DNA of 39,682 nt, taken from IMG/VR virus record IMGVR_UViG_3300027790_000014, positions 1-39,682 of that record; one strand, 5' to 3'. Below, piece after piece: positions 1-35,242 of the stretch. The notes beneath the pieces were generated by a model that saw nothing but the letters and a program-made list of their open reading frames with translations, made no database searches and was not told where the DNA came from. A program made the position numbers and the translations under genes. Position 1 is the stretch's first letter; every line of letters starts with the position of its first letter. Source of the stretch: a virus. Taxonomy: Duplodnaviria > Caudoviricetes.

Positions 1-127
1 CAACAATTCCGGCATTTATTGTAAGCAACCCAGTGACCGGGTCTTTGTAGCACTGCCCGATTTCACAAACTCGACTAGAGGCAGAGTAATATTTGGTTTT
101 ATGATCTTCAAGGGTAAAGTTAGGCGG
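1..127. repeat. Terminal direct repeat, left copy (assembly overlap of a circular contig)
   Basis: Bases 1-127 are identical to 39556-39682. The length matches a common assembler k-mer, and an ORF reads in frame across the junction. Confidence 0.95.
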
Positions 128-277
128 TAGCATTTCTCCTCTGTGAATTTTCTCAACATCCACAGCAGAAACCCTATAGCGGTTCAAAATTTCATGGGTT
201 TGTTTATCGTGAATTTCAACCAAACCCCACGCTGTAGAATCGTTTGTCAGTTGCAATGTTGTCTTAAGAAATTCCAC
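1..277 (-). CDS. Hypothetical protein, 139 aa, N-terminal part (continues across the circular junction to 39413)
   Basis: GTG at 277 after GGGAGA. Reads MEFLKTTLQLTNDSTAWGLVEIHDK... without a stop through the junction. Not in the ORF track. Confidence 0.8.
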   Translation of the reverse strand, partial: MEFLKTTLQLTNDSTAWGLVEIHDKQTHEILNRYRVSAVDVEKIHRGEMLPPNFTLEDHKTKYYSASSRVCEIGQCYKDPVTGLLTINAGIV

Positions 278-279
278 GG

Positions 280-1065
280 TTAATTCTCCCAAAAATTAAG
301 TCCTTCTAGAACGTTTTGATCATCTCCTAGGATATCATCCACCGGAAAGACTCTGTGTTCTATTTTTTCACCGATATCGTGTAATCCAGCGCTGCCATGG
401 TAATAATCATTTTCGAATATCGTTTGCATCACATATGGCACAGGATAATCAAAACGTGGTGACCCTATATAATCATGAATCAGATCTAATTCGCTTTGAG
501 GATTTTTCGTAAAGCGATCATAATCCACAATATGGACTTTATCACCGTGCCCTCTTGCAAACAAATCTTGCATCCACGACATAGCAATGCCAGTCGGTTG
601 ATCGAAGCGTAACTGGTAGTGGATACGCCCTCTACGTGTAGCGCACTGTGCACGATGCTCATCTGTCATATTGTCATGGCGCAAATAATTCTGACGCCAA
701 AGCAATTCCCAAGAGGCTATTATTTGCTTTATATCCCTGACACAAAAAATCATCTTGGTATTGGGGAACGCTTCCTCCAATAATTCAAAATAATGAGGCC
801 AACCGCGCGATCGATCGAATATAAAAGATTCTTCACGATGGGAATAGGCCCCCTCAATTATCCCACGAAGGGCACCTAATTTTTTCTCATCATCAGGGTT
901 AGCCAAAAAACAAGGGTTTTGGTCCCACGCCTGCCTTGCGGCTGTGACTACATCAATAATGCCACTAGTAGGTGATACGTGGAAATCAAGATTTTGGTTC
1001 AAGGCATTGGCTAAGAGGGTCGAACCACTTCTAGGTAGCCCCGCCATGAACACAAAATTTTTCAT
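280..1065 (-). CDS. Sulfotransferase family protein (PAPS-dependent, P-loop fold)
   Basis: N-terminal GLPRSGSTLL 5'-PSB loop, VRDIKQIIASW 3'-PB-like motif, and a YDRF..NPQSELDLIHDYIG segment. Confidence 0.85.
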   Translation of the reverse strand: MKNFVFMAGLPRSGSTLLANALNQNLDFHVSPTSGIIDVVTAARQAWDQNPCFLANPDDEKKLGALRGIIEGAYSHREESFIFDRSRGWPHYFELLEEAFPNTKMIFCVRDIKQIIASWELLWRQNYLRHDNMTDEHRAQCATRRGRIHYQLRFDQPTGIAMSWMQDLFARGHGDKVHIVDYDRFTKNPQSELDLIHDYIGSPRFDYPVPYVMQTIFENDYYHGSAGLHDIGEKIEHRVFPVDDILGDDQNVLEGLNFWEN

Positions 1066-1066
1066 A

Positions 1067-1576
1067 TCAACCTCTTTTGTAATTCAAGCCGGAGATATTA
1101 CCGCTACTATCTCTGATAACTTCAGCGCCCTGAATTGTTTCGATATTATCGATTCTATCACCAATGGTTTCAAGAGCTTTTGTACTTGCTATCTGAGCAG
1201 CGGCAAAAGATTCAGCTAGAGTCGTAATTGATTCCATCACAGCCTCTATTGTTGAATTAATATCAGCCATATGGACATCAAGTTTTGCTGACGATGCTCT
1301 ACTGGACTTCTCAGTTACTTCAGCGGTACTTTTTGTTAGCCCTTCGATGGATTTTTTTAGCAACTCAATCGCGCTATTAATCGACTCAGACTGCTTGTTC
1401 CCATTTTCAGCAACGCCAGCTATTAATTTGAGCAACTCAGTGTTTCGTTGTTCAATGTGCTTCGCCACTTCATCGCTTATGATCGGAGAAGGAGCCAAAG
1501 AGATTATTTCCTTTCTCTTTTGAAGCTCCCTTCTGGCCAGCTCAGCTCGGGCTTGACTCTTCATCGCCATTGGCAA
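1067..1576 (-). CDS. Hypothetical coiled-coil protein overlapping the portal 3' end
   Basis: 169 aa ORF, tightly coupled to its neighbours, with helical heptad-like composition. Confidence 0.7.
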   Translation of the reverse strand: MPMAMKSQARAELARRELQKRKEIISLAPSPIISDEVAKHIEQRNTELLKLIAGVAENGNKQSESINSAIELLKKSIEGLTKSTAEVTEKSSRASSAKLDVHMADINSTIEAVMESITTLAESFAAAQIASTKALETIGDRIDNIETIQGAEVIRDSSGNISGLNYKRG

Positions 1577-3668
1577 TCCTCACGAGTTGTTCTGTCGACA
1601 TGCTTCTAATTTCTTGAACTGTTTTAGCGGTGTCGGCTTGGATCTTCTCAACATTCGCACCAGTTTCTTGCGCTTTAGTAATCGCCGTGAGCCTCTCATT
1701 TTCGGCCCTCAATTGACTATTTTGAGCATCCAATATGAGTTTCGTTTTCTCGATCTCAACCTTCTGGGCGTCAATTTTAACTCGTTCAGCGTTGAGAGTC
1801 AATTCTTGCTGCTTGATCTGTTGAGCCATGATATCAGCTTGAGCTTTCTTCTCTTCAGCCATCGCCAACACCATTTCTGGTGAAGGTTCTTGGGGTTGAT
1901 TAGCAGCTTCAGCACGGGCCTTCTCGATTTGTTCACGCTCTTCATCAGTCCACTGGGACTCAGGAATGATACCTGCATTGATGAGTTGAATACGTTTCCG
2001 CTCTGCAATGACATCAAGACCCGGAGCATTGGTGTTCTTCAACAGAACATCGCCACCTTCGGTGATAACAGACGGATCAAGTTGTGCCATTTCAGTGATA
2101 GCCGCAACAGACTCTTGTTGACGACTGCTGAACGATTTACCGGCACTACACGCAACATTATAACGAGCACGTGATAGATCATTGATCATGACAGGTGTTT
2201 TGGTTTCTTCATCCATCACAACCTGATTAACGATCTCAGTTGAAACAGCACCGTCTTCACCGACCAAACGGATCTGGCGTTGAGTATCGTAAACCTTAGG
2301 AATAGCATCAATCAGAATACGTGCTGTGTGGCAAATCGCCACTTCCTGAGCTTCGAAATACTCATACGTGCCAGTGTCACCTCGTTCTTGCAATGCTTCA
2401 ATAGCGACGCCAGACTGAAGGCCGGGGTTATCGCCCATCGAAGCATTGAACAGACCAGAACCTTGAGTGATATCATCACGCGCTGCCAGTGCTGTGCCTT
2501 CTAACGAAGGATTTACTTGAGGTGGCCCGCCTTTATATGGCGGCGGAGCTTTAGGATCTGGTTTATAGAATTGAACAGGATCAGCGTTGGTATTCATCGT
2601 GCGAAGAGAGTCTTCATGCCCAGCTGCCTGCGCTTCCGTCATCCAATACTTATCACGTGGAGACAGTGCGCCTTCTTCGATCTGACGAGATCTAGCATAG
2701 TTATAAATACGCTGAGCATCCAACAGCTTTTCAATCGCGCCGTGATAGATTGTTTTGTTCTCGGTCACGTTATAATTGGCATAGGTCGGAATGATAGGAA
2801 TCCAACTGAATACCGTTTCGCGTTCACCTCCTAGCCAATCGCCACCATCCAGCTTGCGGGTTTTGACTACTCGATCTTGGCGAGTACGACGAGCTTTTTC
2901 CGTGATGCCAGCTTCTGCCAGCTCATCTTTAATAGGCTCTAGATCGTCTTCACGATAGACAGATCCGTCATTCATCTGGATAAGAACAACGGGCACCATT
3001 TCAACCCAGTAAAATTCAGCGACTGTTACGGTGTCAGCCTTATTGGTGTAGACGTTGGCAGTTCGGTCTACCGCAATGCTGAGACCAGACCCCTCTGGCC
3101 ATTTCTTTTCATATTTTTTGCGATCGATAGGAACCAAACGTACTGCCCATTTGGCATCTGAACGGTCACGTTCTTTTGCGTCTGGATCGAACCAGACTGA
3201 ATTTACAAAATCATAGATAGGCTTGATGAACAAATCTTGGTCAAATGATTCATCATCGGCCCAATCTTGTTTCACCATCCAACCGTCAATACCAGTACCA
3301 ACCATGTTTTTGGCGGCATAGCTGTAGATATGAGTGGCTTTAGATAGATTCTCAATGTTACGAATCATGCCAGACATTAGTTTAGCTGATTCATCATCAG
3401 CGTAACTGTTGGCTGGATCGATTTTAATAGCGAAATCAGCTTTTTTCAGTTCGCCAGTGATCTGGTTAACGATAGGGTTGCATTTGTCCAGAGTATAACG
3501 AGGGCGTCTTGCGGTGCCAAATTGCCGCCAGATTTCTGGCTCCCATTGACCGTCACGCTTATCAAGAAAATTACGGGCTTCACGGGCCTGCTCTCGCTCA
3601 TCGGTGTCTACCGATTGGGCGTCCTTGATGAGCATCAAAACGTCACTATGTTCGTTAAAATCTGGCAT
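1542..3668 (-). CDS. Portal protein, P22 gp1-like
   Basis: 708 aa, directly after terL. GQW..RPRYTLDKCNPIVNQITGE, DAQRIYNY and SGVAIEALQERGD motifs, and a long C-terminal coiled coil. Confidence 0.9.
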   Translation of the reverse strand: MPDFNEHSDVLMLIKDAQSVDTDEREQAREARNFLDKRDGQWEPEIWRQFGTARRPRYTLDKCNPIVNQITGELKKADFAIKIDPANSYADDESAKLMSGMIRNIENLSKATHIYSYAAKNMVGTGIDGWMVKQDWADDESFDQDLFIKPIYDFVNSVWFDPDAKERDRSDAKWAVRLVPIDRKKYEKKWPEGSGLSIAVDRTANVYTNKADTVTVAEFYWVEMVPVVLIQMNDGSVYREDDLEPIKDELAEAGITEKARRTRQDRVVKTRKLDGGDWLGGERETVFSWIPIIPTYANYNVTENKTIYHGAIEKLLDAQRIYNYARSRQIEEGALSPRDKYWMTEAQAAGHEDSLRTMNTNADPVQFYKPDPKAPPPYKGGPPQVNPSLEGTALAARDDITQGSGLFNASMGDNPGLQSGVAIEALQERGDTGTYEYFEAQEVAICHTARILIDAIPKVYDTQRQIRLVGEDGAVSTEIVNQVVMDEETKTPVMINDLSRARYNVACSAGKSFSSRQQESVAAITEMAQLDPSVITEGGDVLLKNTNAPGLDVIAERKRIQLINAGIIPESQWTDEEREQIEKARAEAANQPQEPSPEMVLAMAEEKKAQADIMAQQIKQQELTLNAERVKIDAQKVEIEKTKLILDAQNSQLRAENERLTAITKAQETGANVEKIQADTAKTVQEIRSMSTEQLVRIANGDEESSPS

Positions 3669-3669
3669 C

Positions 3670-4974
3670 TTATCCCCAGCCTGAGAAGTCTATTTTCTTA
3701 GATTTGTTTGGTTGTGGTTCTTCATATACTACGCACATTAAGCCAAATGAATCGGCACCGTGGCTTGACCAATCATGACAAGGGCCAAGGCCGATGTCTC
3801 TGTGCTCATCTTTCTTTTCGTGGTACCAACTAAGGGCATCGATACCGCCTTCGCATTTCTCTTGGTCAATCCATATTCGAGGGAACAACCGGCGTCCTTC
3901 TTCAATACGCAACTTAGCTGCGCCTTTGCCTTGGTTTGGTACCACTTCCACTTCATAACCAGCGGCGATCAAGGATGATTCATAAGAAACATCAAATACC
4001 TTGTCATGAGTTGACCCATCATGTGGCAACCAGATTTTAGTGCGATCTGGTGTATAACCTTCGCCTCTCATCCACGCTAAATGGGTAGCAAGGTCTTGGC
4101 CTTGGGCCTCGTAGTAATTTAGAACGCGAATTTCGCGGCCTATGAATTGAGCTGCCCAGATAGTGAATGAATCCGCTTTCGCGCCTGTGCCGCCGATATC
4201 AACAAAAAGGCGGACAGTGAACATCGGGTCTTCAAATAGACGAGTTAGTCGCCCTTCATTCTTGGCTTGCTGTAGGCGTTTAGCATAATAAGCACCATCA
4301 ACAATCTGAACATAGCCACCATCCCAAATATGGTCATATTCATCTGGGTTGTTTCGTAGGCAGTCTTTGCGTTCTTGCTCCAGCACTGCTGGGAACCAAG
4401 GATTATCATTCCAGTTAGCACGGGTTATAATAGAACCGGTAGGAGGCGTGTTACCTCTAAATAACTTATCGACTGGATCAATTTTTAGTCGTGGGTTCCA
4501 GCTCATCCAGATTTCGGATTCAGGTGCCCGAATAGTAGGACGCAATAACCTTAAACTGTTACTGGAAAGGGTCTGTGCCTCTTCACCCCAAGCCCGTTTG
4601 AACCCTTCAAGGGACTTGATTGATTCTGCTGTGTGGTCTTGCATACCCTGAAAAATGATAACACCATCGCCGGGCGTTGCTATTCGATCAGTGAAAACCT
4701 TGAACCCGTCCTTTTCGCCTAGGCCAAACTCATTTAGTTTAGCTTCTAATAGACGTTTAGCGGAATCCTTCAGTGATTTTTGCACCTCACGAATACAAAC
4801 TGATAGCAATCCTTGGCCACCACAAGCACCGGGTTCATAAAGGCTATCATCGATCAGTTGCTCACCAAAAAAGTGAGATTTGCCTGATCCCCGACCACCA
4901 TAAGCGGCCTTGTATCGGGAGGGTTCTAATAGCGGGGCAAAAACCTTAGCTACTTTTCGCTGTAGTACTGTCAA
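3670..4974 (-). CDS. terL: Terminase large subunit
   Basis: YGGRGSGKS Walker A, AWGEEAQ Walker B, SWNP motif and C-terminal HDWSSHGADSF nuclease motif. Confidence 0.95.
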   Translation of the reverse strand: MTVLQRKVAKVFAPLLEPSRYKAAYGGRGSGKSHFFGEQLIDDSLYEPGACGGQGLLSVCIREVQKSLKDSAKRLLEAKLNEFGLGEKDGFKVFTDRIATPGDGVIIFQGMQDHTAESIKSLEGFKRAWGEEAQTLSSNSLRLLRPTIRAPESEIWMSWNPRLKIDPVDKLFRGNTPPTGSIITRANWNDNPWFPAVLEQERKDCLRNNPDEYDHIWDGGYVQIVDGAYYAKRLQQAKNEGRLTRLFEDPMFTVRLFVDIGGTGAKADSFTIWAAQFIGREIRVLNYYEAQGQDLATHLAWMRGEGYTPDRTKIWLPHDGSTHDKVFDVSYESSLIAAGYEVEVVPNQGKGAAKLRIEEGRRLFPRIWIDQEKCEGGIDALSWYHEKKDEHRDIGLGPCHDWSSHGADSFGLMCVVYEEPQPNKSKKIDFSGWG

Positions 4975-5608
4975 CGATCACGCGCTCAATTGTTTGAATT
5001 GGATTGCCATCAGGATCGCCAACGCCGATCTGATCACGGAATGCTTGTACTTCAACATGCTTGCCAACCAACTCCAATGCCCGGAGTTTGTCATACGTTT
5101 TGATCTTCAGTTTATCAACTGGATAGGTATCTTCACCTTTACCACGATTTATTTCTTCGACCGTGTATTCTTGGATGCAATACCAATCGTCATCATCAGC
5201 ATCGCTAAAGTCATAAACAGCATTGCCATGACTATCAACTTTAATAAACTTACGAATATTAAAATCAGCCAGTAGCGAAGCTCGACGCAATACCCATTCA
5301 GCATCAATCGTAGCTTGCTCGAATTTAAGTGCTTGCTCGACTTGAGATTCGACGAAATCTTCGATAGCTTCTTCAATACGAAGGTTAGCACGTTCAATAG
5401 CTTTTGCTTGAATATGTTCAATGACGGCTTTAACTTTTGGATTATTGAACACCTTGTAGCAAGAAGACTGTTGAGTCTTTTCATTTTGGCCCGGTACTGG
5501 ATACGCAGTGCGGTAAGCCCGCATTTTGTTACCATGGCGTATGTACTCCATCACCAAATCTTGCTGTTGGTCAGTCAATGTAGACCAGACGTTGGCACTG
5601 TCATTCAT
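4946..5608 (-). CDS. terS: Terminase small subunit
   Basis: LTDQQQDLVMEY..GNKMRAYRTAY HTH-like N-terminus and KIKTYDKLRALELVGKH motif. Overlaps the terL start. Confidence 0.85.
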   Translation of the reverse strand: MNDSANVWSTLTDQQQDLVMEYIRHGNKMRAYRTAYPVPGQNEKTQQSSCYKVFNNPKVKAVIEHIQAKAIERANLRIEEAIEDFVESQVEQALKFEQATIDAEWVLRRASLLADFNIRKFIKVDSHGNAVYDFSDADDDDWYCIQEYTVEEINRGKGEDTYPVDKLKIKTYDKLRALELVGKHVEVQAFRDQIGVGDPDGNPIQTIERVIVDSTTAKSS

Positions 5609-5613
5609 TCTTT

Positions 5614-5646
5614 CACGCTACCGCCCCTGCAGGTTCCTACAGTGGC
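5614..5646 (-). promoter_or_regulatory. ops element (5614-5625) in a JUMPstart-like context
   Basis: The minus strand reads GCCACTGTAGGAACCTGCAGGGGCGGTAGCGTG, with an exact 12-nt ops preceded by the hairpin CTGTAG-GAAC-CTGCAG. It lies between rfaH and terS. Confidence 0.92.
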
Positions 5647-5670
5647 TCCAATTAATCAATTTGTTTTGAC

Positions 5671-6162
5671 TTACAGAAAATCAGCGTTATTTGCTATTAT
5701 CTTCTGTTGTCCGCCTAGCAATCCCATTAAAAGCATTGAACGGGTCTCCCCATCTGGCTCTTGGTAAATCGCTTCAACTCCAGCAAAAGGACCTTTGTTT
5801 ATGGTCACTGTATCGCCTTTGTTTGGTCGTATTGAGTTGATAGGCTCTCTGGTTTGGTGTCTTTCTTTTAGTTGGTCGATCAGTCTTTCGTCGACCTTTA
5901 TTAGCTTGTTACCAAATGTAACTAACTTACTGACACCGAAACTATTGTTAATTTTAGCAGCGCTTGTTATCGCCGGGTCAAACTTCACGAAAACGTAGTT
6001 TCTAAAAACTGGTTCAAGCTCGGTGGTTATTTTGCCTCGTTTAAGCTTTTCTACCACCACCTTTGGATTGAAAGTTTCAATCATCTGGCTTAATAAGTTG
6101 TTTTCCGCTTTGTCCTGTTCACCGAAACCAGTTTTTGTTTTGACAGCGTACCAGTTTTCCAT
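5671..6162 (-). CDS. rfaH: RfaH-like transcription antiterminator (NusG family, NGN plus KOW)
   Basis: 163 aa and colinear with E. coli RfaH as recalled: WYAVKTK, EKLKRGK..EPVFRNYVFVKFDP, GVSKLVTFG, GDTVTINKGPFAGVEAIYQEPDGETRSMLLMGL. Confidence 0.9.
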   Translation of the reverse strand: MENWYAVKTKTGFGEQDKAENNLLSQMIETFNPKVVVEKLKRGKITTELEPVFRNYVFVKFDPAITSAAKINNSFGVSKLVTFGNKLIKVDERLIDQLKERHQTREPINSIRPNKGDTVTINKGPFAGVEAIYQEPDGETRSMLLMGLLGGQQKIIANNADFL

Positions 6163-6192
6163 AATCGGCTTTATTTTAAGATTGTACTGGTA

Positions 6193-6222
6193 ATTTTACC
6201 ACAAAGTGGTAGGTTTTGTCAA
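6193..6222 (-). promoter_or_regulatory. sigma70 promoter driving rfaH and the late operon
   Basis: Minus strand TTGACA-18nt-TAAAAT with extended -10 TG. The spacer contains the palindrome TACCAC-AAA-GTGGTA. Confidence 0.75.
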
Positions 6223-6282: not shown

Positions 6283-6311
6283 TTGACAGTTGCGTTCTGC
6301 TGTGTTATAAT
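6283..6311 (+). promoter_or_regulatory. sigma70 consensus promoter, first early promoter
   Basis: TTGACA-17nt-TATAAT with extended -10 TG. Divergent from the rfaH promoter. Confidence 0.88.
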
Positions 6312-21166: not shown

Positions 21167-21593
21167 GAACCAATTCAAAAAGCATTTGATGAAGATAATG
21201 GGCACCCGGTGGGATGCCCAATCTCACGAGGACAAGTACTCAAACGGCATCCCGGATCTTTCTTTTGGTGCCAATGGTGTGAATGGGTGGATCGAGTTGA
21301 AGCAAATCCCAAAGTTTAAGGGAAGTAACCTCGTTAAGCCGGACAAGTACACTCCTGAACAAATCAATTGGATCAAACGCAGGGGTAAGAAAGCTGGTCA
21401 TTGCTTCATATTCGTAAAAGTAGATGACCGGTACTTTCTATTTGATTGGGGATGGGCCAGAGAAATAGCCAAAGGTATGACAAAAGCCCAATATATAGAA
21501 CGTAGTCTATGGTATTGGAGCGAAATTGACCCTAATCAGCTAATTGATTTTCTTACCAACCCATCGTTTAGCCCAAGCTCTGATGGTCTGTGA
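21153..21593 (+). CDS. PD-(D/E)XK nuclease (VRR-NUC or Holliday junction resolvase-like)
   Basis: GIPDL...GWIELK...PEQINWI. Confidence 0.8.
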   Translation: MNRRENQFKKHLMKIMGTRWDAQSHEDKYSNGIPDLSFGANGVNGWIELKQIPKFKGSNLVKPDKYTPEQINWIKRRGKKAGHCFIFVKVDDRYFLFDWGWAREIAKGMTKAQYIERSLWYWSEIDPNQLIDFLTNPSFSPSSDGL

Positions 21594-21860
21594 CCCCATA
21601 AACCCGATCATCCCACCGCAGAATAAATACCAATTTTGGCCAAAACCCAATTGGGCTAGCCCATGCCCAGCACATAAAGAAAGTGCCCCGCAAATAGCTC
21701 CTTCTAATAAAATCCTTGTAAAACTAGTTTCTTCCTTATCTCCTATCACACGTAATACGGCCAAGAACCATGCCATTATGACCCCTCCCGCCCAAGGCGG
21801 TATGTTCTCAATTAAGTGTTTAAAATTATCCATCCCGATATGGTCCTTATTCACTTTCAT
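21540..21860 (-). CDS. Holin, lambda S-like
   Basis: Three TM segments, LEGAICGALSL..GGMIGFMGSQTIR and a basic C-terminus. Confidence 0.8.
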   Translation of the reverse strand: MKVNKDHIGMDNFKHLIENIPPWAGGVIMAWFLAVLRVIGDKEETSFTRILLEGAICGALSLCAGHGLAQLGFGQNWYLFCGGMIGFMGSQTIRAWAKRWVGKKIN

Positions 21861-22152
21861 ACCAATGATTTAGCTTTCTTTCGTGGGCTTTTATTTTACT
21901 AGGCAGTTTATTTAGTTTCCATTTATCTACAGCATCCCTTTTTTCTTCAGGAATATTGCGTATTACTGCTAGTTCTTCTTCAGCCTCTTCGATCTGGGAT
22001 TCAAGTTCAATGATTTGTTGTTGCATCAGATAGGGGGCGTCGACCTTCTTAGCAACATCGGAATGTTTCGCATAGCGGTCTTCGGCAGCTAGGACCACAC
22101 CGCCGATAGCCACGATCAAAGCGACGGCGGCAGAGAGTTTCGCAACATTCAT
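21847..22152 (-). CDS. Membrane-anchored coiled-coil protein (possible spanin component)
   Basis: N-terminal hydrophobic segment followed by a coiled coil, inside the lysis cassette. Confidence 0.5.
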   Translation of the reverse strand: MNVAKLSAAVALIVAIGGVVLAAEDRYAKHSDVAKKVDAPYLMQQQIIELESQIEEAEEELAVIRNIPEEKRDAVDKWKLNKLPSKIKAHERKLNHWYESE

Positions 22153-22155
22153 GAT

Positions 22156-22623
22156 TTAATTACCTCCCGGCTTTTTCGTGTCCGTTCCCTTGGCTTTGTC
22201 GTAACTACGCTGGGCACCTATACCTAACATACCCATGACGACAGAGAAGAGCGCTCCCGTTTCCAGAACAGGCGGCGGAGAAACTCCAGCAGGGATTTTC
22301 CCGAAGGCTTGAAATATAGCCCATACCCAAATTAGGAATGGATAAATTATGAACTGGTAGGCCATAGCAGCACCACCAGCCCAGCCCATAAAAGGACGCC
22401 ACCCAGCTACGAAAATAGACGGATGTTCAGCTTCCTTAAGGTTAATAGCCAGTTGGCCTTCGATCTGCCTGACGAAGGCATTTAATTCAGCCAAGTCACC
22501 TTTTTGCTCCAGCTCAGCTAATTTGTGATGAGCCTCAGCTTGCTGAATAGGATCAGGCCATACTCGGTTAATAAGACCCTTGGCCAGTCCTGCAACAGCA
22601 CTAATAGTCATTGGATCAGCCAT
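22156..22623 (-). CDS. Holin-like protein (GTA 3TM holin family)
   Basis: FVAGWRPFMGW and GMLGIGAQRSYDK motifs. Start coupled to the endolysin stop. Confidence 0.78.
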   Translation of the reverse strand: MADPMTISAVAGLAKGLINRVWPDPIQQAEAHHKLAELEQKGDLAELNAFVRQIEGQLAINLKEAEHPSIFVAGWRPFMGWAGGAAMAYQFIIYPFLIWVWAIFQAFGKIPAGVSPPPVLETGALFSVVMGMLGIGAQRSYDKAKGTDTKKPGGN

Positions 22624-22973
22624 CACATGCACCCGTTATGTTCCAAGGAATAATGATTACCATCGTTGAAACGACCGCCCCAACGGCACAAAGGATGAAG
22701 TGATTCCCACCACTCGCCTAATTCCCGGTGATCCTCAGTTTCCGTCAGGAATTCACCATCTTTAAACAAATTAAGATCTTGAGCTAAACGCAATTTGTGA
22801 CAGCTATTGCGATGGCCATATGCTTTCTTTTCACCAATATGACCATGAAGGCGAGGATCACGATAAGCATCGCCTAATGTCACCTCATAGCCCATTTGAT
22901 GGGCCTGATTAATGAGTCCCGGTAACAATTTCGCGAATAAACGTTGCTTTTCGCCTAAAGTCATTTTGCTCAT
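22623..22973 (-). CDS. Endolysin, peptidase M15 family
   Basis: GDAYR, SCHKLRLAQDL and WGGRF..DGNHYS zinc-peptidase motifs. Confidence 0.88.
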   Translation of the reverse strand: MSKMTLGEKQRLFAKLLPGLINQAHQMGYEVTLGDAYRDPRLHGHIGEKKAYGHRNSCHKLRLAQDLNLFKDGEFLTETEDHRELGEWWESLHPLCRWGGRFNDGNHYSLEHNGCM

Positions 22974-23257
22974 ACATCATGCTTCCTATAATTAAATGAA
23001 GAAGACCCGAATTTACGAACCATAAAATAATAGACGTAAGCTTGGGCAACACGAATGGGCCGAGTCCAGAAGTATCTTTCACTATCGCGCAACATAGCAT
23101 CAAGAAATTTCCAATCACAATGGGCGCGATAGCCTTCTGTGCCGCCTTTCTGATAACCCTCATCATGTTTATCACATGATGCTTCATGAAACCAGTTAAA
23201 TAAAAGGTTTTTTATCCATTCTGGTAACCATTCTGGACCACACCCATTACTAGACAT
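22970..23257 (-). CDS. Prokaryotic phospholipase A2-like protein
   Basis: NGCG..ASCDKHDEGY..CDWKFLDAM..YYFMVRKFG. Start set to MSSNGCG. Confidence 0.6.
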   Translation of the reverse strand: MSSNGCGPEWLPEWIKNLLFNWFHEASCDKHDEGYQKGGTEGYRAHCDWKFLDAMLRDSERYFWTRPIRVAQAYVYYFMVRKFGSSSFNYRKHDV

Positions 23258-23513
23258 TAAAGAAACTCGCTCTAAAAGGTTTCCATACGGATTCGAAATC
23301 ATCAATATTATGAGGTCCTAAAACAACCACATTACCGTTATCAAATTGAAATGGAGTAGTAAGACCTGCTCGAACATCATCCTTAATAGAAGATAGGCCC
23401 CACATATCTTGCGCGGTCGCAGAGCACATAACACCTTCAAATTCCACTCCTTCGAGCTTCTTTTTAGGTTTATCTATATCCGTCTTCTTAGCTGCATTTA
23501 CTGATAAGCTCAT
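23250..23513 (-). CDS. Hypothetical protein, tail-associated
   Basis: 87 aa, GGAGGT RBS, coupled to the upstream gene. Confidence 0.7.
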   Translation of the reverse strand: MSLSVNAAKKTDIDKPKKKLEGVEFEGVMCSATAQDMWGLSSIKDDVRAGLTTPFQFDNGNVVVLGPHNIDDFESVWKPFRASFFNV

Positions 23514-23698
23514 ATTTCACCTCCTATACCATCAGCCTCACGAGAGGGAGTCCATTCCCACGCATCTCTGTATTCTCTGTTAGCATCCATGAATTCCTTT
23601 TCTTCAGGAGTTACATGCCAGTACTCTACTCCTGCTGGAACTGACGTAGGCTTGGAGCATTGACAGATATTGCCGTTATCAATGTAAACAATGTGCAT
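23510..23698 (-). CDS. Small tail fibre assembly-like protein
   Basis: VPAGVEYW..REYRDAWEW motif, directly downstream of the tail fibre. Confidence 0.6.
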   Translation of the reverse strand: MHIVYIDNGNICQCSKPTSVPAGVEYWHVTPEEKEFMDANREYRDAWEWTPSREADGIGGEI

Positions 23699-26600
23699 TA
23701 GTCTTTACCTCCAAAAACATTAACTGTAACGATGTTAGAGTCTACGTCGCTGCCCGTCGATGTACTTTTGACCTTGACGTCCACGTAGTTCCTTGATCTT
23801 ACGGTATTAGCAATACCAAACGTTGTAGTTTCGATTGCAGCTCCCGTAGGAGTAGCGGCGTCGTTATCCATAGGCGTTTCGTAGACAACACGGTAAAACC
23901 CAGCACCTAAATCGACAATATCAGAAACGTTATAAGAGCTACGTATCAACGGCGGGTTTTGGGCCCCATCAAAGTTCACCCAAGCAGTAGCTACTTGAGG
24001 ATTCTCAATCTCACCACGAACAATCAAATCACCATGCACCTCTTCATCAATTACTTTCCTCTTAGCAGGAGTGTAATTAACAAGAGTCTCAGCAACGATG
24101 TCACCATCACCGTCAGTACGGAATTCACCAAGATAGACACGGGAGATAGGAGATCCAGCACTGTCATACATCTTCCCATCTACTACATCGTAGCGATCAG
24201 AAGGAGTGATGGTGTTAAGTTCTAGCTGGTTAATAGAGGTGTAAGTAGCATCGCCATTATTCGCAGTGATATTGATACGATGGCACAAATAGGCTGTAGT
24301 GTTCGCAGACGTATCTTGCAGATCTCCCCAAAGGTTAGTGCCATTCCCAGAGTAATCTGCTGAAGTATAGGAACTGTCAATAGCAGTCCAGTTTAGACCG
24401 TCATTACTACCTTCAATAGTAAATCTACGTGGGGACTCTGTAGTATCATTTACTTCACGTAGCCTCCAAGATTTAAGAACTCTAGGCTCTGAGAACTTAT
24501 ATTGTAGCCAGCTTGTAGTAGGTGTAGATGCAGCCCAATAAGTAGAGGGAAGAATATCATTAGGGCGCGCTGAGAACGCTCCCCACGCTACTTGAGAACC
24601 TGTTTCCTCACTAGCACTAGCAACACCTGTACTACTTTCATAGTCAAAATGTCTAGCAGTGGTTCGGAGATTTACATCCCCTCCAAGAGGACTCTGAACA
24701 CCAAAGTAATCCTGCTCCTCAAGAGGACGATACTCAGTGACTCCATAAGCACCAGCTTTATCCTTGTAGAGATAGAGCTTCTTATTCTCATTACTTACTG
24801 GAACAGTGAAAGTAGTAGATGCCCCAACTTGCTCCTGAGTATTCACTTCACCATTGGAATTGAAACCTTCAGCGAAAGAGATAAGAGTGTCTTGATTAAT
24901 AGTTACTTCATTTGCAGCAGTGGCGTAATCGTATTGAGCGAACACTCGGTTACCCGCTGTACCAGTTTCAGCAATAGCTAGGAATAGGTACTCATCATTG
25001 AGAGCGTTGTAGCCCGTCCCAGTAGTGTTGACAATGAATCCATCTTCTGCGGTAAGGATGCTAGTAACTACAGATTCAGCAAAGTTAAGATCCGCATATA
25101 ATTCGTTAGCGACTCCTCTAGCTGTATCTACAATAAACCAACTACCTGCCTGACTAAGACGCTTACCTACGATCCAAGCAGGCTTAAACCCATCACCTTT
25201 ACCGGGTTCTGACTCAGTGGATACATAGTTACCAGCAGCGCCAGTACCAATATACTTACCTACCTTGATTAGACCGGGAGTATTGGCGAAGTGGTAAGAT
25301 ACCATAGCATCTGAAGGACTGTTGATGCTATTAAAAGTGTTCAAAGAAATAGATGTGTTAGTACTCAATATACCTGATATAGCAGCAGAAGCACCTGTCA
25401 GGTTCAAATCAAGTCTTTCAGAATAGTCACCGAAGACGACAGGCCAATCAGTGACTATGTCTCTGTTCTTAAAGATACTCAGGTCAGGGGCTCTACCTAA
25501 GTGGTGAGGAATTTCATGCCCCGCAACGCCATCACCTACATAACCAACAATGCTAAATCCCATATCAGGGTTGAAGTGACAGGTGTAGGCTTTGTTTCTG
25601 TTAGTTAGACCAGTAGCAATCTTAGTAGTCTGGAAACACCAAGCGGCGTAGTCACGGCCACTCGTATTGTAGCCAGTGCTACTGCCTACATTGAAACCCG
25701 ATGCTGTTACGCTTGCGATACCTGTGCCGCCTGCTAGAGCTTCTGCTGCTGTAGTGTCGCTTGATAAAAAAGCGTCGAAGTTACTTCTTACAGAGTCTTG
25801 TAAGAAATGACTATTCAACGCATCTCTATCTTTAATCCAAATAAGCCCGCCGAAATCAGCGCTGAACATATCTACCCCCGTAGGGATAGTCTGGCTCGTG
25901 CCATTACCTAGATAGCTAAGGATACCTACACCATTCCTAGAAGCTTCTCCCTGACTCAGAGGGTCTTGGTTAAGTACTTGGTTACGAGATGCGGAAGCAA
26001 TTTGTTGCGTAGCACCCACACTAGCAGCGGCTTCACCAGCCCAAGTTTTCGCGGATTTGCTGCCGGGGCCACCGGGTTCAGTGGGTGACTCTGCCCAATC
26101 TTCAGCGGTCTGAGCACTGGCAGCAGCTGCTGTTACATCGAGACCAGTTTGAACGCGATCAGCAGCCGTGGCAACAGCATCGGCGGCAGTATCAGCGGCA
26201 TCAGAAGCAGCCGCCGCCGCACTGGCAGCAGCATTAGTTTCACTGGCAGCGGCGTTGGTCTCGCTAGTAGAAGCAGCGGACGCACTGGCAGCGGCGTTGG
26301 TTTCGGATATGGCTGCCGCGTCACGGGCTGCTTCTGCTTGTAACGCAAATACCTCAGCATCACCTACATTAGGTGGCCAAGGAGTCCAATTAGTACCGGG
26401 ATCAGATGATGGGTTATTGCCTTGGTTATCTACTACTTGAGATTCCCAATATAGATCATTGTCGCGTACGATATCAGCAACATCATAAAAAGCGTCATTG
26501 TTCCAATCAGCACCAAAGGTCTGTCCAGAACCGCCGCCAACAGGATCACGTGATAAAATTTGTACATCATCAGAATCAGTCAATATAACACGATAAGAGC

Positions 26601-26799
26601 CAGAGCCAAAAACATTAGGACAACGGCCATCGCCGTTCAGAATCACGGGATTAGAATTAGCGATGGTCTCGTTAACATCGGCATATGTGTTTTTAAGAAC
26701 TGTACTACTACCTGATTCATAAAAATACAGTTTACCACTGATGAGAGGGTCACCAGCAGGATCGAAAAATTGTTCGAAAGCATTGATTAATCGAGCCAT
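23698..26799 (-). CDS. Tailspike or tail fibre (receptor-binding protein)
   Basis: 1033 aa. N-terminal particle-binding domain (FFDPAGDPLISGKLYFYESG..NPVILNGDGR), Ala-rich linker, YxGxG repeats, discoidin-like SPRRFTIEGSNDG domain and AWVNFDG C-terminal domain. Confidence 0.85.
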   Translation of the reverse strand: MARLINAFEQFFDPAGDPLISGKLYFYESGSSTVLKNTYADVNETIANSNPVILNGDGRCPNVFGSGSYRVILTDSDDVQILSRDPVGGGSGQTFGADWNNDAFYDVADIVRDNDLYWESQVVDNQGNNPSSDPGTNWTPWPPNVGDAEVFALQAEAARDAAAISETNAAASASAASTSETNAAASETNAAASAAAAASDAADTAADAVATAADRVQTGLDVTAAAASAQTAEDWAESPTEPGGPGSKSAKTWAGEAAASVGATQQIASASRNQVLNQDPLSQGEASRNGVGILSYLGNGTSQTIPTGVDMFSADFGGLIWIKDRDALNSHFLQDSVRSNFDAFLSSDTTAAEALAGGTGIASVTASGFNVGSSTGYNTSGRDYAAWCFQTTKIATGLTNRNKAYTCHFNPDMGFSIVGYVGDGVAGHEIPHHLGRAPDLSIFKNRDIVTDWPVVFGDYSERLDLNLTGASAAISGILSTNTSISLNTFNSINSPSDAMVSYHFANTPGLIKVGKYIGTGAAGNYVSTESEPGKGDGFKPAWIVGKRLSQAGSWFIVDTARGVANELYADLNFAESVVTSILTAEDGFIVNTTGTGYNALNDEYLFLAIAETGTAGNRVFAQYDYATAANEVTINQDTLISFAEGFNSNGEVNTQEQVGASTTFTVPVSNENKKLYLYKDKAGAYGVTEYRPLEEQDYFGVQSPLGGDVNLRTTARHFDYESSTGVASASEETGSQVAWGAFSARPNDILPSTYWAASTPTTSWLQYKFSEPRVLKSWRLREVNDTTESPRRFTIEGSNDGLNWTAIDSSYTSADYSGNGTNLWGDLQDTSANTTAYLCHRINITANNGDATYTSINQLELNTITPSDRYDVVDGKMYDSAGSPISRVYLGEFRTDGDGDIVAETLVNYTPAKRKVIDEEVHGDLIVRGEIENPQVATAWVNFDGAQNPPLIRSSYNVSDIVDLGAGFYRVVYETPMDNDAATPTGAAIETTTFGIANTVRSRNYVDVKVKSTSTGSDVDSNIVTVNVFGGKD

Positions 26800-26804
26800 T
26801 GTTA

Positions 26805-29027
26805 TTACCTTGTTTTTAACAGTTCTTCGATGGATTTAATAGCAGCGTCTTCATTGATACCACGGGCGCGTTCTAAAGCTTCGCCAGCAGCACCTACAGC
26901 ACGTTCTGTAATACCTTGATCTTGGGCCACCTCAGCACCGGTACGGACGGCTTGCTCAATTTGTCCTTTAAATGAAGTACGAGCAGCAGCACCGAACATG
27001 CGGTCTAGTTCATCGGCAAATAGAACTTGGGTTGTGATGTCATCTTCAAATTTACCACCAGTTTTCTTGGCTACTTTTTCAATTTCATCAATGGCACTGA
27101 CCATATTGGCACGGGATTGCGTATTGCTAAGTAGTCGACGCAATGAAGTACCAACAGCTTTATCGGCATTAGGACCAAAGAAATCAAGTTTAGTACCGGC
27201 TGATGCCTGTAGCGAATCAAGAGCATTGATGGTTTCAGAGAAAGTAGTATTGGCTTTCTCATAGTCAGCAAAATTAGCATCAAGTACGTTATCTAGGCCA
27301 GTACGTAATTGTTTTAGAACACGCTCAGATTTACCGGACAGACCTCGAACTTGCTTGCCGAAGGTTACTTGTTCATCGATAAATTTCTTCAGGCGGTGAC
27401 CTTCGAAAGCGTCCGGGAGTCGTTTAGCTGTTCGCACAGGCTCGAATTCACTTAAAACTTGCCGCTGTAGCCCCCCCATCCCGACCAATTCTGATGTGGC
27501 AGTTGCAGTCTTAGTTCCTTTTTTAAAATCCCCCGGCTTCAGGATAAATTCCATAATTCTCTCTTCAGGGTCCCATCCTATCAATGAGGGATGCACGAAT
27601 TCATCCCCCATCGGTAAAATTTTAGTTCCTTTGGGGAGAACAACTTCTTCCACATTACTGGAAAATCTAGCAGCTACTTCAGGATCTGGTGTCACTGAAG
27701 TTATGGTTTTTCCGGTCTCAGGATTGGCCGCCCCCCTATATACTTTGGTGGGTCTATCTAGAGTAATGCCCTTATCATTTATAGCTTTCACTATATCATC
27801 AAACTGATTCTTTAGATGGTCGGGCAGCTTTCTTCCAGTAGCCAGAAATTCATTGATATCCGGACTTTCAACATAGTCGATTATGGATTTCATTTGTCTA
27901 CTTGATAATCCATCGATGCTTTGGTTAGGTATATCCAATGAAACAGCTTGACTTACCGAGGGTTTGGGTGTCAGTTTACTGATTCTACCTAAAACATTTT
28001 TAATAGCTTTTTCAGCTCCCTTAACGCCTTCAATATCAGAACCTTCAAAAGCCGCTTTAAAATTTCCGTTGTCTAGACGTTCAACAGTTATTCCCATTTC
28101 ATCTAATTGACCAAGAAAATCATCCACTGCTGGTGAAAAATCAGCCTGTTTTCCCTTTAAATCTTGAGCAGCTTTGTTGACAGCAGCGCCTGCTTCCTTA
28201 TTCACTTTCTTAATGTGATTAACGCGTTCAAGTAATGTTTGGCCAGCGATATCAGACGGACGATTCTTAGAAGCGAACAGCGCGTTTTCACGGCCACGCT
28301 TAAGAATGTCTACCATCCCTTGCATTTTGCGCTTATCGCGTTTAGTAGCAGCTTTAGTAGCAGCAATTACACCCCGGTCAAATCCTTGGCGTAACGTTTC
28401 CATTGCTTGAGGACTTTTAGCCACTTTACCGGTTTCATCACGGATGAATTCAGCTAATTTTTTATTGGCAGGATCAGCAGCTAATGTTTCAGCGATTTTT
28501 TGCTTGGCTGGACTTTGCGCAGTGAAAGATCTTGCTATATCATCAACTGCACCAGTTGCTCCAGTCTTAGCGGCAACTCCTATTGGGGCAGCTGGAGTAG
28601 TGAATTCACCTAAAAGGCCCAATGCTTGACGTAGATTAGGATCTTGGACAAATCCACCGCCAGCACCTGCCTTACCTATAGCAGATCCTTTCAAAGTAGG
28701 AACACGAAGATCAGAACCAGCCAATTGTAAAGCGGCATTAGCAATATCAGCCGGAATATCGGCTACAGATAGAGCACCACGGTTGAATCCCGCAATCACT
28801 TCTAAGGCAGCTTTACGAGCCAGATCAAGATTAACAGGATCAGAAATAAGTCTATCGGCTTGATTACCACTTTGAAGTGAGCCATCGCCATTGGCAGTAG
28901 CAGTAGTAGATACTCCATTTTGAACACCTGCAAAAATTTGTTCCAATTCCGCTTCAGTGGGTGGAGAATCGCCGGTAATTTCGACGATTTTACCACTTTC
29001 TGGATCTGTAATTTCAAATGTAGGCAT
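26805..29027 (-). CDS. Large ejection (DNA transfer) protein with an internal ADP-ribosyltransferase-like domain
   Basis: Occupies the P22 gp16 position and is helical and Ala/Gly-rich. Internal DYV..DINEFL..KVYRG..TSVT..VAARF..LPKGTK..MEFIL segment. Confidence 0.7.
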   Translation of the reverse strand: MPTFEITDPESGKIVEITGDSPPTEAELEQIFAGVQNGVSTTATANGDGSLQSGNQADRLISDPVNLDLARKAALEVIAGFNRGALSVADIPADIANAALQLAGSDLRVPTLKGSAIGKAGAGGGFVQDPNLRQALGLLGEFTTPAAPIGVAAKTGATGAVDDIARSFTAQSPAKQKIAETLAADPANKKLAEFIRDETGKVAKSPQAMETLRQGFDRGVIAATKAATKRDKRKMQGMVDILKRGRENALFASKNRPSDIAGQTLLERVNHIKKVNKEAGAAVNKAAQDLKGKQADFSPAVDDFLGQLDEMGITVERLDNGNFKAAFEGSDIEGVKGAEKAIKNVLGRISKLTPKPSVSQAVSLDIPNQSIDGLSSRQMKSIIDYVESPDINEFLATGRKLPDHLKNQFDDIVKAINDKGITLDRPTKVYRGAANPETGKTITSVTPDPEVAARFSSNVEEVVLPKGTKILPMGDEFVHPSLIGWDPEERIMEFILKPGDFKKGTKTATATSELVGMGGLQRQVLSEFEPVRTAKRLPDAFEGHRLKKFIDEQVTFGKQVRGLSGKSERVLKQLRTGLDNVLDANFADYEKANTTFSETINALDSLQASAGTKLDFFGPNADKAVGTSLRRLLSNTQSRANMVSAIDEIEKVAKKTGGKFEDDITTQVLFADELDRMFGAAARTSFKGQIEQAVRTGAEVAQDQGITERAVGAAGEALERARGINEDAAIKSIEELLKTR

Positions 29028-30082
29028 TATTTTGTCCTTACTTGAAAACGTCCTATTTGTTGTACTTGGCCGGTATTATTGCCGTCACCATTTTCAAATG
29101 TCTTAGGTAATCTTGCCAATGTTTTACGGCGAATGGCAGGTGGTAAATGTTCATCGAAAGTATCTAGAAAACCAACTACCTCCCGATTACTATCAGTAAC
29201 AGCCTGATTAGCGATTCTTTTAGCAGTGGCAGTCATTTCATTGAATACTTCGGGAGGAAGAGCGCCCTCGCCTTGGATTCTATTAACGAATCCGATTAAC
29301 TGATCTGAAATACCACCAGTAGCACGGGCCTGCTCTTGTTCGCCTTCACGCACGACTGATGTGGGATCAAGCGCTTTCATGAAAGTGAAAATCGCAGCCA
29401 ACTGATCAGTAGCGGTTTTGGTCTCACCGATTTTTTCTAATCGAGCAGCAGCATTGCGAATTTTCTTAGGTTCAGCGATCAATTTTTCTACATCACTTTG
29501 GATATTACGCAATTCACTTAATTTGAGATCAGGCTTTTCTGCCAGCCCCTCTAGCTTTTTCCGTGCTTGGGCTGTCTCCACTTTTATTTTATCAGTCTCA
29601 GCTTCAATTTTCTTGGTTTCAGCGATTTCCTTTTCAGTCAATTGCTTACTACCATCAACTGCTGCCGTGAATGATTGTAGTTCTTTAATGGCCTCAGCCG
29701 GATTGACCATCGCTAATTGTCTAATTCGACGGGTTTGAGTAGGATCGCCACCACGGGCCATAATTTGCTGGATACGCTGATCAGCGAAAGTTATAAACCC
29801 TTGCGGGTTAGACTGAAGCAGATTTTGCCCGATACGGGCATCACGAATAAATTCGTCAATATCCTTCGCGTCCTTAGCCCGGATCGACTCTCCTATTTGA
29901 AGGGCAATAGCTGGCTCTATACCGGCCAATTCTTTCAAAGCGCCTTCTTGGCCAGCGAAAGCCTGTCCTGATAATTCGCGAATATCAGATTGGCGTTGCT
30001 GTTCGCGACCACGTTCAAAAGCACCAAGAACATCAGGTGCTCTCTGTGATAGAATGGCTTGTGCTACTACTGGGGATACCAT
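29027..30082 (-). CDS. Ejection protein (gp20-like position)
   Basis: 351 aa, helical, with an FMKALDPTSVVREGE motif. Confidence 0.7.
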   Translation of the reverse strand: MVSPVVAQAILSQRAPDVLGAFERGREQQRQSDIRELSGQAFAGQEGALKELAGIEPAIALQIGESIRAKDAKDIDEFIRDARIGQNLLQSNPQGFITFADQRIQQIMARGGDPTQTRRIRQLAMVNPAEAIKELQSFTAAVDGSKQLTEKEIAETKKIEAETDKIKVETAQARKKLEGLAEKPDLKLSELRNIQSDVEKLIAEPKKIRNAAARLEKIGETKTATDQLAAIFTFMKALDPTSVVREGEQEQARATGGISDQLIGFVNRIQGEGALPPEVFNEMTATAKRIANQAVTDSNREVVGFLDTFDEHLPPAIRRKTLARLPKTFENGDGNNTGQVQQIGRFQVRTK

Positions 30083-30091
30083 GTGGCCTCC

Positions 30092-30973
30092 TTATGCAAA
30101 TGGGTCTTGGAAAGCAGTTAACCCGAATTCGTCGATTCCAAATCCGGCTCGATCAAATCCGCCTAGATTAACGGCAGTGTTTATACCACTTTGAACCGGC
30201 TGAGACTGGAAGAATCGACCACCTAACCCAGCCAGTGCCTCGGTTAATTGGCCACGTTCATTAGCCGCCGCGATTCCTTGAAGACCGGATATATCAGCAC
30301 GTTGCTGAATACCAGAAATAACGGGAGCAGCGCCACCAATACGGATATTGGAAAGCTGTGTACCACGAGCGCCAAGAATCTGGGCCTGTCTGTTTCGCGC
30401 TGCTTCGTCTAGCTCCGACAATGTTGAACGTATTGTTCGAGCTTGCCCTGCCAAAGGCTCAAGTTCCGCAAGTCGTCTGGTGATGATATCGGCTTGCTGC
30501 CCTGCCGCCAGTTGTTGACCTGCTAAAAGAGAGGCTCCTGACACATCGCCGCTCGCAAATGCTTGGCGTTGCTGTTGGGCGAGTTGGCGGCGGTTCAATT
30601 CGCGTTGAAAATCAGAAACCGGAATTCCAGAAATAGCCTGTTCTTGGGCAGATTGCCCACTTAACCCTAAAATCGCGGCTTGTTCTTCAAAAGCACGGAG
30701 ATCATCAAATTGCTCTAATGGTTCCCGTTGAGCTTGACCGGCCAATTCGGCTAGACGCAATTGCTCTGCAGACCCTTCGCGCACCAAACGTAATGCTTCA
30801 GGAGTACGAGCCTTAATCAAAGCATCAATATCTTTAGGATTAAGAGTACTGGGATCAGTTCCGGGAGTTCCTATCCTGACAGCACCTAAAGCAGTTTGAA
30901 CATTAGGGTCAGCAGCGGGGATATTCAAGTTACTAAAATTGCTTAAATCTATATTACCAAGATTAATGGCCAT
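30092..30973 (-). CDS. Ejection protein (Ala/Gln/Gly-rich)
   Basis: Composition and synteny. Confidence 0.65.
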   Translation of the reverse strand: MAINLGNIDLSNFSNLNIPAADPNVQTALGAVRIGTPGTDPSTLNPKDIDALIKARTPEALRLVREGSAEQLRLAELAGQAQREPLEQFDDLRAFEEQAAILGLSGQSAQEQAISGIPVSDFQRELNRRQLAQQQRQAFASGDVSGASLLAGQQLAAGQQADIITRRLAELEPLAGQARTIRSTLSELDEAARNRQAQILGARGTQLSNIRIGGAAPVISGIQQRADISGLQGIAAANERGQLTEALAGLGGRFFQSQPVQSGINTAVNLGGFDRAGFGIDEFGLTAFQDPFA

Positions 30974-31674
30974 TATAAAATTCTCCCGGCCAACCCGGCC
31001 AATGATTCGGCTGCACTAGTTCTAAATTGTTGACCTGCTACATCACCAAGTAATCTGGCTTCACGAGCAGAACCACCAAGTTCTTGTAATTGACCACCAG
31101 TACCGACCAACAACGAAGCTCGTTGTGCCCCAGTACCACCGGCGATATCGGCTAGACTTTCAAGACCACGTGAACGGATAGCACCGATGTCACCCGCAGT
31201 CGCAATGCCTTGACCGCCAAGAGCAAGGAGCGATTGGTTAATATCAGGTGTGATACCACTAACAGCCAAGTCAGCTTGCCTAGCTAGTTCAGGTTGTATT
31301 CCTTCAGTAGCAAAAATACGAGGATCAACCCCGGCCAAAGCTGCTTCTCTCACAACATCAGCGATGCCACCTGAGATAGGAGCGCCGCCTAGAATTTGAT
31401 CGGTGGCTAATTGCTGAGCTTGAATGCCCGGTTCCAAGAATGGCTGTAGTCTAGATTCAGCCTCAGTAGTACCTAAAGCAATACGTTGAGCTGCTTCCTT
31501 TTGAGCCTGTAAAATGTCGAGTTCACCGGATCGAGTAGCAGTTTTTAACTGTTTAGCCGATTGGATCGCTGCACGTTCTTGATCTTTAGCAGCACTTTCA
31601 CGAGCCTTTTTGGCATCACGGGCTGATTTTACCGCAACTGCTGCTCCTACAACTGCTGATGTAACTGCCGCCAT
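30973..31674 (-). CDS. Ejection protein, P22 gp7-like
   Basis: Hydrophobic Ala/Gly N-terminus followed by KKARESAAKDQERAA and LQPF..G. Confidence 0.7.
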   Translation of the reverse strand: MAAVTSAVVGAAVAVKSARDAKKARESAAKDQERAAIQSAKQLKTATRSGELDILQAQKEAAQRIALGTTEAESRLQPFLEPGIQAQQLATDQILGGAPISGGIADVVREAALAGVDPRIFATEGIQPELARQADLAVSGITPDINQSLLALGGQGIATAGDIGAIRSRGLESLADIAGGTGAQRASLLVGTGGQLQELGGSAREARLLGDVAGQQFRTSAAESLAGLAGRIL

Positions 31675-32695: not shown

Positions 32696-32973
32696 TATGA
32701 CCTCTGTGCCCAACCAGTATCGCCGTCACCGGTTTCTTTGAAATAAATTCCGGTACCAACGGCAGCCGATGTATCTACATACCATCTACCAACAGATGCG
32801 ATGATATTGCCTTCAGGAGTACCCGACCCCGTTAATGGAGGCGTATTGTTGACCGCTTCTGTGATCTGAGCCATCCAATTATGAAACTCTTGAGTAGATA
32901 CCATGCCACCGATTATACCGGCTTCTTCGACTACCGGAAGACCAAAAGCAGGGACAATAATAGGATCAGCCAT
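32695..32973 (-). CDS. Small tail-associated protein
   Basis: GSGTPEG..VGRWYVD..YFKETGDGDTGW spike-type motif. Follows gp10. Confidence 0.65.
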   Translation of the reverse strand: MADPIIVPAFGLPVVEEAGIIGGMVSTQEFHNWMAQITEAVNNTPPLTGSGTPEGNIIASVGRWYVDTSAAVGTGIYFKETGDGDTGWAQRS

Positions 32974-35014: not shown

Positions 35015-35050
35015 TGTTTAACCTCGGTGATGATTTATATAGCTGAATTA

Positions 35051-35209: not shown

Positions 35210-35242
35210 GATGATTTCCTCAATTAGGCGTTTAGATAGTCA

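Follow-up and report, generated by a model that had tools for sequence, protein, structure and literature searches.

Genome organization and the late arm

The window, the whole 39,682-nt stretch of DNA that was analysed, is a complete circular phage genome of 39,555 bp, in which the first 127 nt are identical to the last 127 nt. The host is likely a gammaproteobacterium. An earlier note, made from the letters alone, had described a phage-encoded RfaH homologue with a cognate ops site at the head of the minus-strand late operon, in the order promoter, rfaH, 45 nt, ops, 5 nt and terS ATG. All of these elements were confirmed at their coordinates, with the terS ATG at 5608. The features discussed below are as follows.

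6193..6222, minus strand: late promoter of sigma70 type (TTGACA-18-TAAAAT, extended TG), from the promoter scan
5671..6162, minus strand: phage-encoded RfaH-family NusG paralogue, 163 aa, from HMMs, fold and alignment
5627..5642, minus strand: predicted 5-bp stem-loop, JUMPstart-like, ending 2 nt 5' of ops
5614..5625, minus strand: exact ops, GGCGGTAGCGTG, an exact match and the only exact copy in the window
4946..5608, minus strand: terS, terminase small subunit (Pfam Terminase_2), the first gene after ops
1542..4974, minus strand: terminase large subunit and P22-like portal, from the family scan
1..1576, minus strand: late arm up to the circular junction, including a sulfotransferase-like gene
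21544..39682, minus strand: remaining late arm, with scaffold, P22-type coat, head-tail, tail and lysis genes
35243..35265, minus strand: predicted terminator-like hairpin with a short U run after the coat gene (-15.2 kcal/mol, z -2.75)
6283..6311, plus strand: first of eight early promoters, divergent from the late promoter

The late arm continues through the circular junction. A count of ORFs gave 29 co-oriented ORFs over ~23.6 kb after ops, in agreement with the earlier estimate. The late genes are tightly packed with few gaps. A sulfotransferase-family gene (280-1065, minus) and a GNAT acetyltransferase gene (31674-32120, minus) lie among the virion genes. The plus-strand early arm is driven by eight near-perfect sigma70 promoters and encodes a primase-helicase, an SNF2 helicase, a family A polymerase, a PurZ/MazZ/DatZ-type cluster and tRNA-Met. 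The tRNA-Met(CAT) gene (10949-11024, plus) is located just 3' of an early promoter, and the Z-genome set (16263-21166, plus) comprises a phiVC8-like family A polymerase and PurZ-like (YGSTGKG motif), MazZ-like and DatZ-like genes. Candidate regulators in the early arm are an HTH-like protein (13568-13855, plus) and a protein of no known family (10364-10837, plus). The last late ORF overlaps the last early ORF head-on (21540-21593), without a clear intergenic terminator.

The late promoter occurs at the same position in the related contigs L001, L335, L336 and L340, and lies 28-30 nt 5' of rfaH in four lineages. An inverted repeat overlaps its spacer and -10 element. Inverted repeats are found in or across the spacers of promoters 10838, 15860, 10287, 13856 and 18718 (plus) as well as 6222 (minus), and may act as operators or also terminate transcription; overlaps of a similar kind are annotated in phiVC8. 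The early arm of one relative (L397:4023-5725) contains duplicated promoter sequences in two identical pairs.

No strong second promoter was found on the late strand, as had been noted before, but there are two weaker intragenic candidates, at 1802 (score 15.8) and 32267 (score 14.2). Shuffled sequences gave maxima of 9.4-20.6, a range that includes both scores, and the 1802 candidate is conserved in neither L001 nor L129. The earlier statement that the phage encodes no Q-like gene, sigma factor or RNA polymerase held for the 47 ORFs scanned, among which we also identified no member of a known late-activator family. Late timing could instead come from non-consensus promoters that depend on an activator, for example an early HTH protein, in which case RfaH-ops would only help the packaging genes. 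The HTH-like ORF at 13568-13855 and the weak late-strand candidates are compatible with such control, to which consensus scans are blind. We consider it very unlikely, given how tightly the late genes are packed, that the 1802 site is not conserved and that the ORFs scanned include no known late activator.

The RfaH homologue

The window protein passes the NCBIfam RfaH model NF006534 (150.2 bits against a cut-off of 124) and is far under the cut-offs of the UpxY (63.7/100), LoaP (48.7/125) and NusG (38.1/135.7) HMMs. It can be aligned end to end with E. coli RfaH (E 2e-28). An AlphaFold model based on a deep alignment has an NGN domain and a beta-KOW domain (pLDDT 90.7); the deep alignment gave the beta-KOW form only, and a shallow alignment gave a model of low confidence. 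The top two Foldseek matches of the model are both RfaH, the first being 8PHK_P (TM 0.73); identity to E. coli RfaH is 38% in this comparison. In a quick tree of 31 rows, a subset of a 100-row alignment, the 13 rows of the phage clade group in a single branch (SH-aLRT 92, below 95) that adjoins RfaH of Enterobacterales, Vibrio and Pseudoalteromonas. This placement is suggestive, not firm, evidence from sequence that the phage RfaH proteins are one clade beside gammaproteobacterial RfaH. The NF006534 pass and the fold match bear out the identification of the gene as an RfaH homologue, although the protein falls narrowly below the second RfaH-type model, TIGR01955 (139.8 against 144.5).

The RNAP-binding positions F51/Y54/F56 are invariant in all 40 clade proteins. 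At the autoinhibition positions E48, I93 and F130 the window protein has E, I and Y, respectively, with Y at the F130 position also in 17 of 25 cellular RfaH proteins, and R138 is retained. In E. coli RfaH four side chains (K10, H20, R23 and R73) contact ops, and H20A and R73A cause strong recruitment defects, according to the accessible text of PMC5995543. K10 is retained in 38 of the 40 clade proteins, including the window protein, where H20, R23 and R73 are replaced by N, S and F, so that three of the four ops-reading side chains are changed. R73 is lost in all five ops-linked phage proteins, yet retained in 15/40 clade proteins, and N at position 20 also occurs in 10/25 cellular RfaH proteins. 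Position N147 is occupied by G in 33 of 40 clade proteins, and the position of the NusG Rho-binding loop (IFG) reads LLG in the phage protein and LIN in E. coli RfaH. Because H20, R23 and R73 are changed, we regard the protein as a variant of the RfaH family and not as an E. coli-type orthologue. The rfaH start has almost no Shine-Dalgarno (SD) pairing (-0.1 kcal/mol).

In Z-genome DNA, position A7 of ops would be 2-aminoadenine. A link between the altered ops-reading pocket and the Z-genome is not supported: PurZ was found in none of four related records (20-73% complete), and the H20/R73 changes are the same in the relative L337.

Of the clade clusters, 20 were looked up, and every one derives solely from metagenomic or read assemblies. 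A tblastn search with the window protein against 50,697 cultured-phage records returned only two Salmonella bacterial contigs, and a scan of GTDB genomes with strict patterns returned no clade member and two distant deltaproteobacterial matches. Plasmid matches reach ~40% identity and, among the matches listed, are cellular-type.

The ops element and its leader

By base composition, an exact ops 12-mer is expected by chance 0.0024 times per genome and ~1e-6 times in the rfaH-terS gap. The window ops is the E. coli chromosomal consensus, and 11 of its 12 positions are invariant in five lineages. These include the central bases, which are needed for recruitment but not for pausing in E. coli, where A7T abolishes RfaH recruitment (PMC5995543, accessible text). 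Within the rfaH-terS spacers only the ops 11-mer and one stem base are invariant.

The JUMPstart-like hairpin proposed earlier retains a conserved stem, but its Rfam score is under the cut-off. In four lineages 20/20 cells of the stem pair, with two two-sided compensatory changes, although in this small sample of four sequences pairing was equally high in 17 of 500 shuffles. The hairpin region alone folds no better than shuffles (z -1.28). The Rfam JUMPstart model RF01707 matches the leader over its full length at 17.4 bits, against a gathering threshold of 35 (E 0.21); a full-length match of this strength fits capture from a gammaproteobacterial leader. We found no mention of an upstream RNA hairpin in the accessible part of PMC11001881.

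terS was said to have no SD sequence, but ops itself offers an imperfect SD-like duplex (-6.7 kcal/mol, ~11 nt 5' of the terS ATG). This stretch is 10-11 nt 5' of the terS start codon in both the window and L340, and L336 has an AGGA 5 nt 5' of terS. ops is distant from the next ATG in L335 and L337. Neither an intrinsic terminator nor a C-over-G skew suggesting a Rho site was found 3' of ops in the window.

Conceivably, the phage factor has lost autoinhibition and ops dependence and acts as a general competitor of NusG, with ops serving as a pause or ribosome-loading site for terS. The changed ops-reading residues, the confidently predicted beta-KOW form and the SD-like stretch before terS in the window and L340 would all suit such a factor. 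However, E48, I93 and R138 are retained in the window protein, the recruitment-specific central bases of ops are invariant, and ops is far from the following ATG in L335 and L337. On balance we think this explanation decidedly unlikely.

Conservation of the rfaH-ops pair

A profile scan of IMG/VR that did not require ops yielded 44 loci, namely 6 phage-clade, 2 cellular-type and 36 distant NusG paralogue loci. The sequence GGCGGTAGCGT occurs 17-47 nt after the rfaH stop in all six phage-clade contigs, whose proteins have 97% (L001 and L002), 53% (L335), 51% (L336), 42% (L337) and 36% (L340) identity to the window protein. The six contigs represent five lineages, whose proteins have 35-53% identity to the window protein, and a third 97% copy (L129) came from a metagenome scan. 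The ops linkage is based on these six contigs, and ~35 clade proteins are without genomic context. The search of phage databases that the earlier note had proposed recovered the cassette in relatives, with ops conserved beside rfaH in all six contigs.

A related terS accompanies rfaH-ops in L335, L336 and L340. From one lineage to the next, the terminase, portal and capsid genes that follow terS come from different families, which argues that retention of the cassette does not depend on the cargo behind it. All lineages have an intact rfaH. The two cellular-type loci, L338 and L339, have no ops. The ops core was not found within 100 nt of rfaH at any of 40 cellular-type loci (3 of 43 were too short and were dropped), nor was ops found in either of two terS relatives without rfaH. 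A combined pattern of the protein end and ops, which by design requires ops, gave 10 matches in IMG/VR, the six known and four due to chance, and the P0203 scan returned only the contig of L337. We collected 177 distinct viral ops sites, 21 of which passed an intergenic filter (a non-exhaustive set, as the filter also dropped window-type sites); only two, rfaH-linked, precede a terminase as judged by eye.

Host RfaH might be the main reader of ops, the phage copy topping up a scarce factor or widening host range, with no gate timed by the phage. The window ops is the E. coli consensus, H20, R23 and R73 are missing from the phage protein, and the accessible text of Wang et al. states that RfaH activates any operon with ops in its leader. 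Plasmid PrfaH, in contrast, uses a divergent site of its own, and chromosomal RfaH does not substitute for it (PMC11880322, accessible text). However, N at position 20 is common in cellular RfaH (10/25), R73 arose late in RfaH evolution, rfaH is intact in all lineages and, of the 21 filtered intergenic viral ops sites (non-exhaustive), only the two rfaH-linked ones precede a terminase. We judge this reading unlikely. The phage RfaH might also act mainly in trans on host ops operons (LPS, capsule and EPS) and remodel the cell surface. A canonical ops implies shared specificity, and the targets of host RfaH are envelope operons, but this leaves unexplained why all five lineages keep ops in the interval from rfaH to the first late gene, and we find it hardly credible.

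The nearest cultured phages by DNA polymerase are Vibrio phages (52-54% identity). Three cultured relatives, phiVC8, K300 and Alteromonas phage ZP6, were compared, and rfaH and ops are absent from all of them. In each, a consensus sigma70-type promoter immediately precedes terS, and another, intergenic promoter precedes the capsid gene. None of four divergent-type rfaH phages has such a pre-capsid promoter; three of these are fragments (20-42% complete), but include the capsid gene. The contrast is one of position, as the phiVC8 site scores 15.9, like the intragenic 1802 site of the window. Since the rfaH phages lack the pre-capsid promoter that their rfaH-less relatives carry, the comparison fits replacement of an internal promoter by RfaH-ops. 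The consensus promoters on the late genes of the cultured relatives also suggest that this phage group can run its late genes from ordinary promoters, and that an RfaH timer is not obligatory.

A lambdoid relative and distant NusG paralogues

L337 is a lambdoid phage (record G004, 73% complete) with the gene order HTH regulator, replication initiator, DnaB, HNH, resolvase and rfaH, and with ops 17 nt later. 3' of ops are a GC hairpin (-9 kcal/mol) with U7, then small membrane-type genes, followed by terminase, portal and coat. No consensus promoter turned up there. By its arrangement, rfaH of L337 sits in the Q position, and ops and a predicted terminator, a hairpin with a U run, come after it in that order (L337:6478-6570). 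This layout is the best structural argument for a gate and makes L337 the cleanest test case, in which rfaH-ops would fully take the place of Q at the terminator.

Distant NusG paralogues occupy the Q slot in many phages (L341-L376; L379-L382). Most of the 36 distant NusG paralogue loci lie just before terminase-like genes, by eye. The ops core occurs within 100 nt at 3 of 35 of them (L352 was left out), against 0.32 expected. In four cultured temperate phages a NusG-like gene is found in this region, three with an annotated terminase close behind. Other sequences near such genes include TGCGGTAGCT after the stop in L341, L342 and L366, and GGGCGGTAAC ~100 nt after the stop of the NusG-like gene of phi3LM21. 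In L179, L182 and L183 cellular RfaH-like genes are followed by a hairpin and an ops, TGCGGTAGCGTG.

A model for late gene expression

We propose that the phage RfaH probably joins polymerase at ops and keeps it transcribing along the late operon. Host RNA polymerase would start near 6186, transcribe rfaH and pause at ops; without RfaH, Rho would tend to terminate it in terS or further on. Accumulated RfaH would then load and carry polymerase through the 24-kb arm of virion and lysis genes, shielding it from Rho, and the RfaH-bound polymerase would also pass the terminator-like hairpin after the coat gene. Pausing at ops, exclusion of NusG and ribosome recruitment via S10 would follow the example of E. 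coli RfaH, for which ops pausing, recruitment, NusG exclusion and ribosome loading are described in the accessible texts of PMC5995543 and PMC7593976.

Because ops is downstream of rfaH, the factor would be made unaided and without self-amplification. Late output would then rise as RfaH accumulates, and a graded delay is more likely than an all-or-none one. The earlier claim that RfaH and ops gate the whole late operon is supported insofar as the pair heads the operon in five lineages, but a strict Q-like timer is less supported. The analogy to lambda Q/qut likewise holds best for L337, with rfaH in the Q position before a terminator-like hairpin, whereas the window has no terminator after ops. 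A strict timing switch is less secure on sequence grounds because the canonical ops could be read by host RfaH already present, because H20, R23 and R73 are changed and neither an intrinsic terminator nor a C-rich skew follows ops, and because cultured relatives carry ordinary sigma70-type promoters on their late genes.

More broadly, RfaH/ops may be a third class of phage late antitermination beside N and Q, with a dedicated fold-switching clade, a remodelled ops-reading pocket and a portable cassette for virion and lysis timing, while among uncultured phages NusG paralogues would occupy the Q slot much more widely still. We offer this generalization tentatively and rate its chances as slightly short of even.

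Relation to known systems

RfaH/ops itself is known and has so far been described only for bacterial and plasmid operons; the phage likely uses it to drive its late genes. We found no phage late operon under RfaH/ops in the literature within reach, which mostly excludes subscription papers; the data sets of Wang et al. and the phi3LM21 supplements may list phage rfaH-like genes. The accessible part of Wang et al. mentions rfaH-like genes on prophages without giving their function. Phage late control is a founding model of antitermination, and RfaH is a regulator of envelope and virulence genes and an activator of plasmid transfer; a phage clade with RfaH/ops on its virion operon would, if true, join the two fields. 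Such phages would also offer a natural setting in which to ask how a protein without H20, R23 and R73 recognizes an identical ops, and whether timing is possible with a factor whose gene lies 5' of the site at which it loads. At only 0.65 kb, the cassette is easily testable in E. coli. In Serratia entomophila, the RfaH-like factor AnfA1 activates the phage-derived particle cluster Afp, which, unlike a phage, is a non-replicating contractile injection system.

The phage system resembles E. coli RfaH with ops/JUMPstart (PDB 5OND, 6C6S, 8PHK) in fold and family, the 12-nt ops, the upstream hairpin and the long target operon. It differs in that the gene is phage-encoded and first in its own target operon, the targets are virion genes, and H20, R23 and R73 are changed, with G at N147 in most clade proteins. 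The factor gene is likewise inside the operon it serves in cis-encoded cellular RfaH clusters (Shewanella CL7, PMC7593976, accessible text) and in UpxY systems, but their targets are polysaccharide operons and not phage morphogenesis genes, and the window protein does not reach the UpxY HMM cut-off.

A mobile-element version of RfaH/ops is proven for IncX plasmids, according to the accessible text of PMC11880322. PrfaH/ActX (PDB 9IK0) is the element's own RfaH-like antiterminator, co-transcribed with the long operon that it activates. The plasmid site, however, is divergent and located 5' of prfaH, and chromosomal RfaH does not act on it, whereas the phage ops is canonical and 3' of the gene. 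The temperate phages phi3LM21, Nsp-JY10, MinM1 and ppBjS10J-1 have, by annotation only, a NusG paralogue between replication and packaging genes. These phi3LM21-type genes share ~26-31% identity with distant viral queries, are undetected by the window protein and have no exact ops; the main text on phi3LM21 mentions neither NusG nor antitermination.

Lambda Q/qut, Pseudomonas AlpA and Caulobacter GafZ (PMC11150451, accessible text) likewise achieve processive antitermination of a long late or particle operon with a factor loaded at a DNA site. The proteins are unrelated to RfaH, and they load at a promoter element, whereas RfaH is loaded onto elongating polymerase at a hairpin of the non-template strand; the window has its loading site ~570 nt downstream of the promoter.
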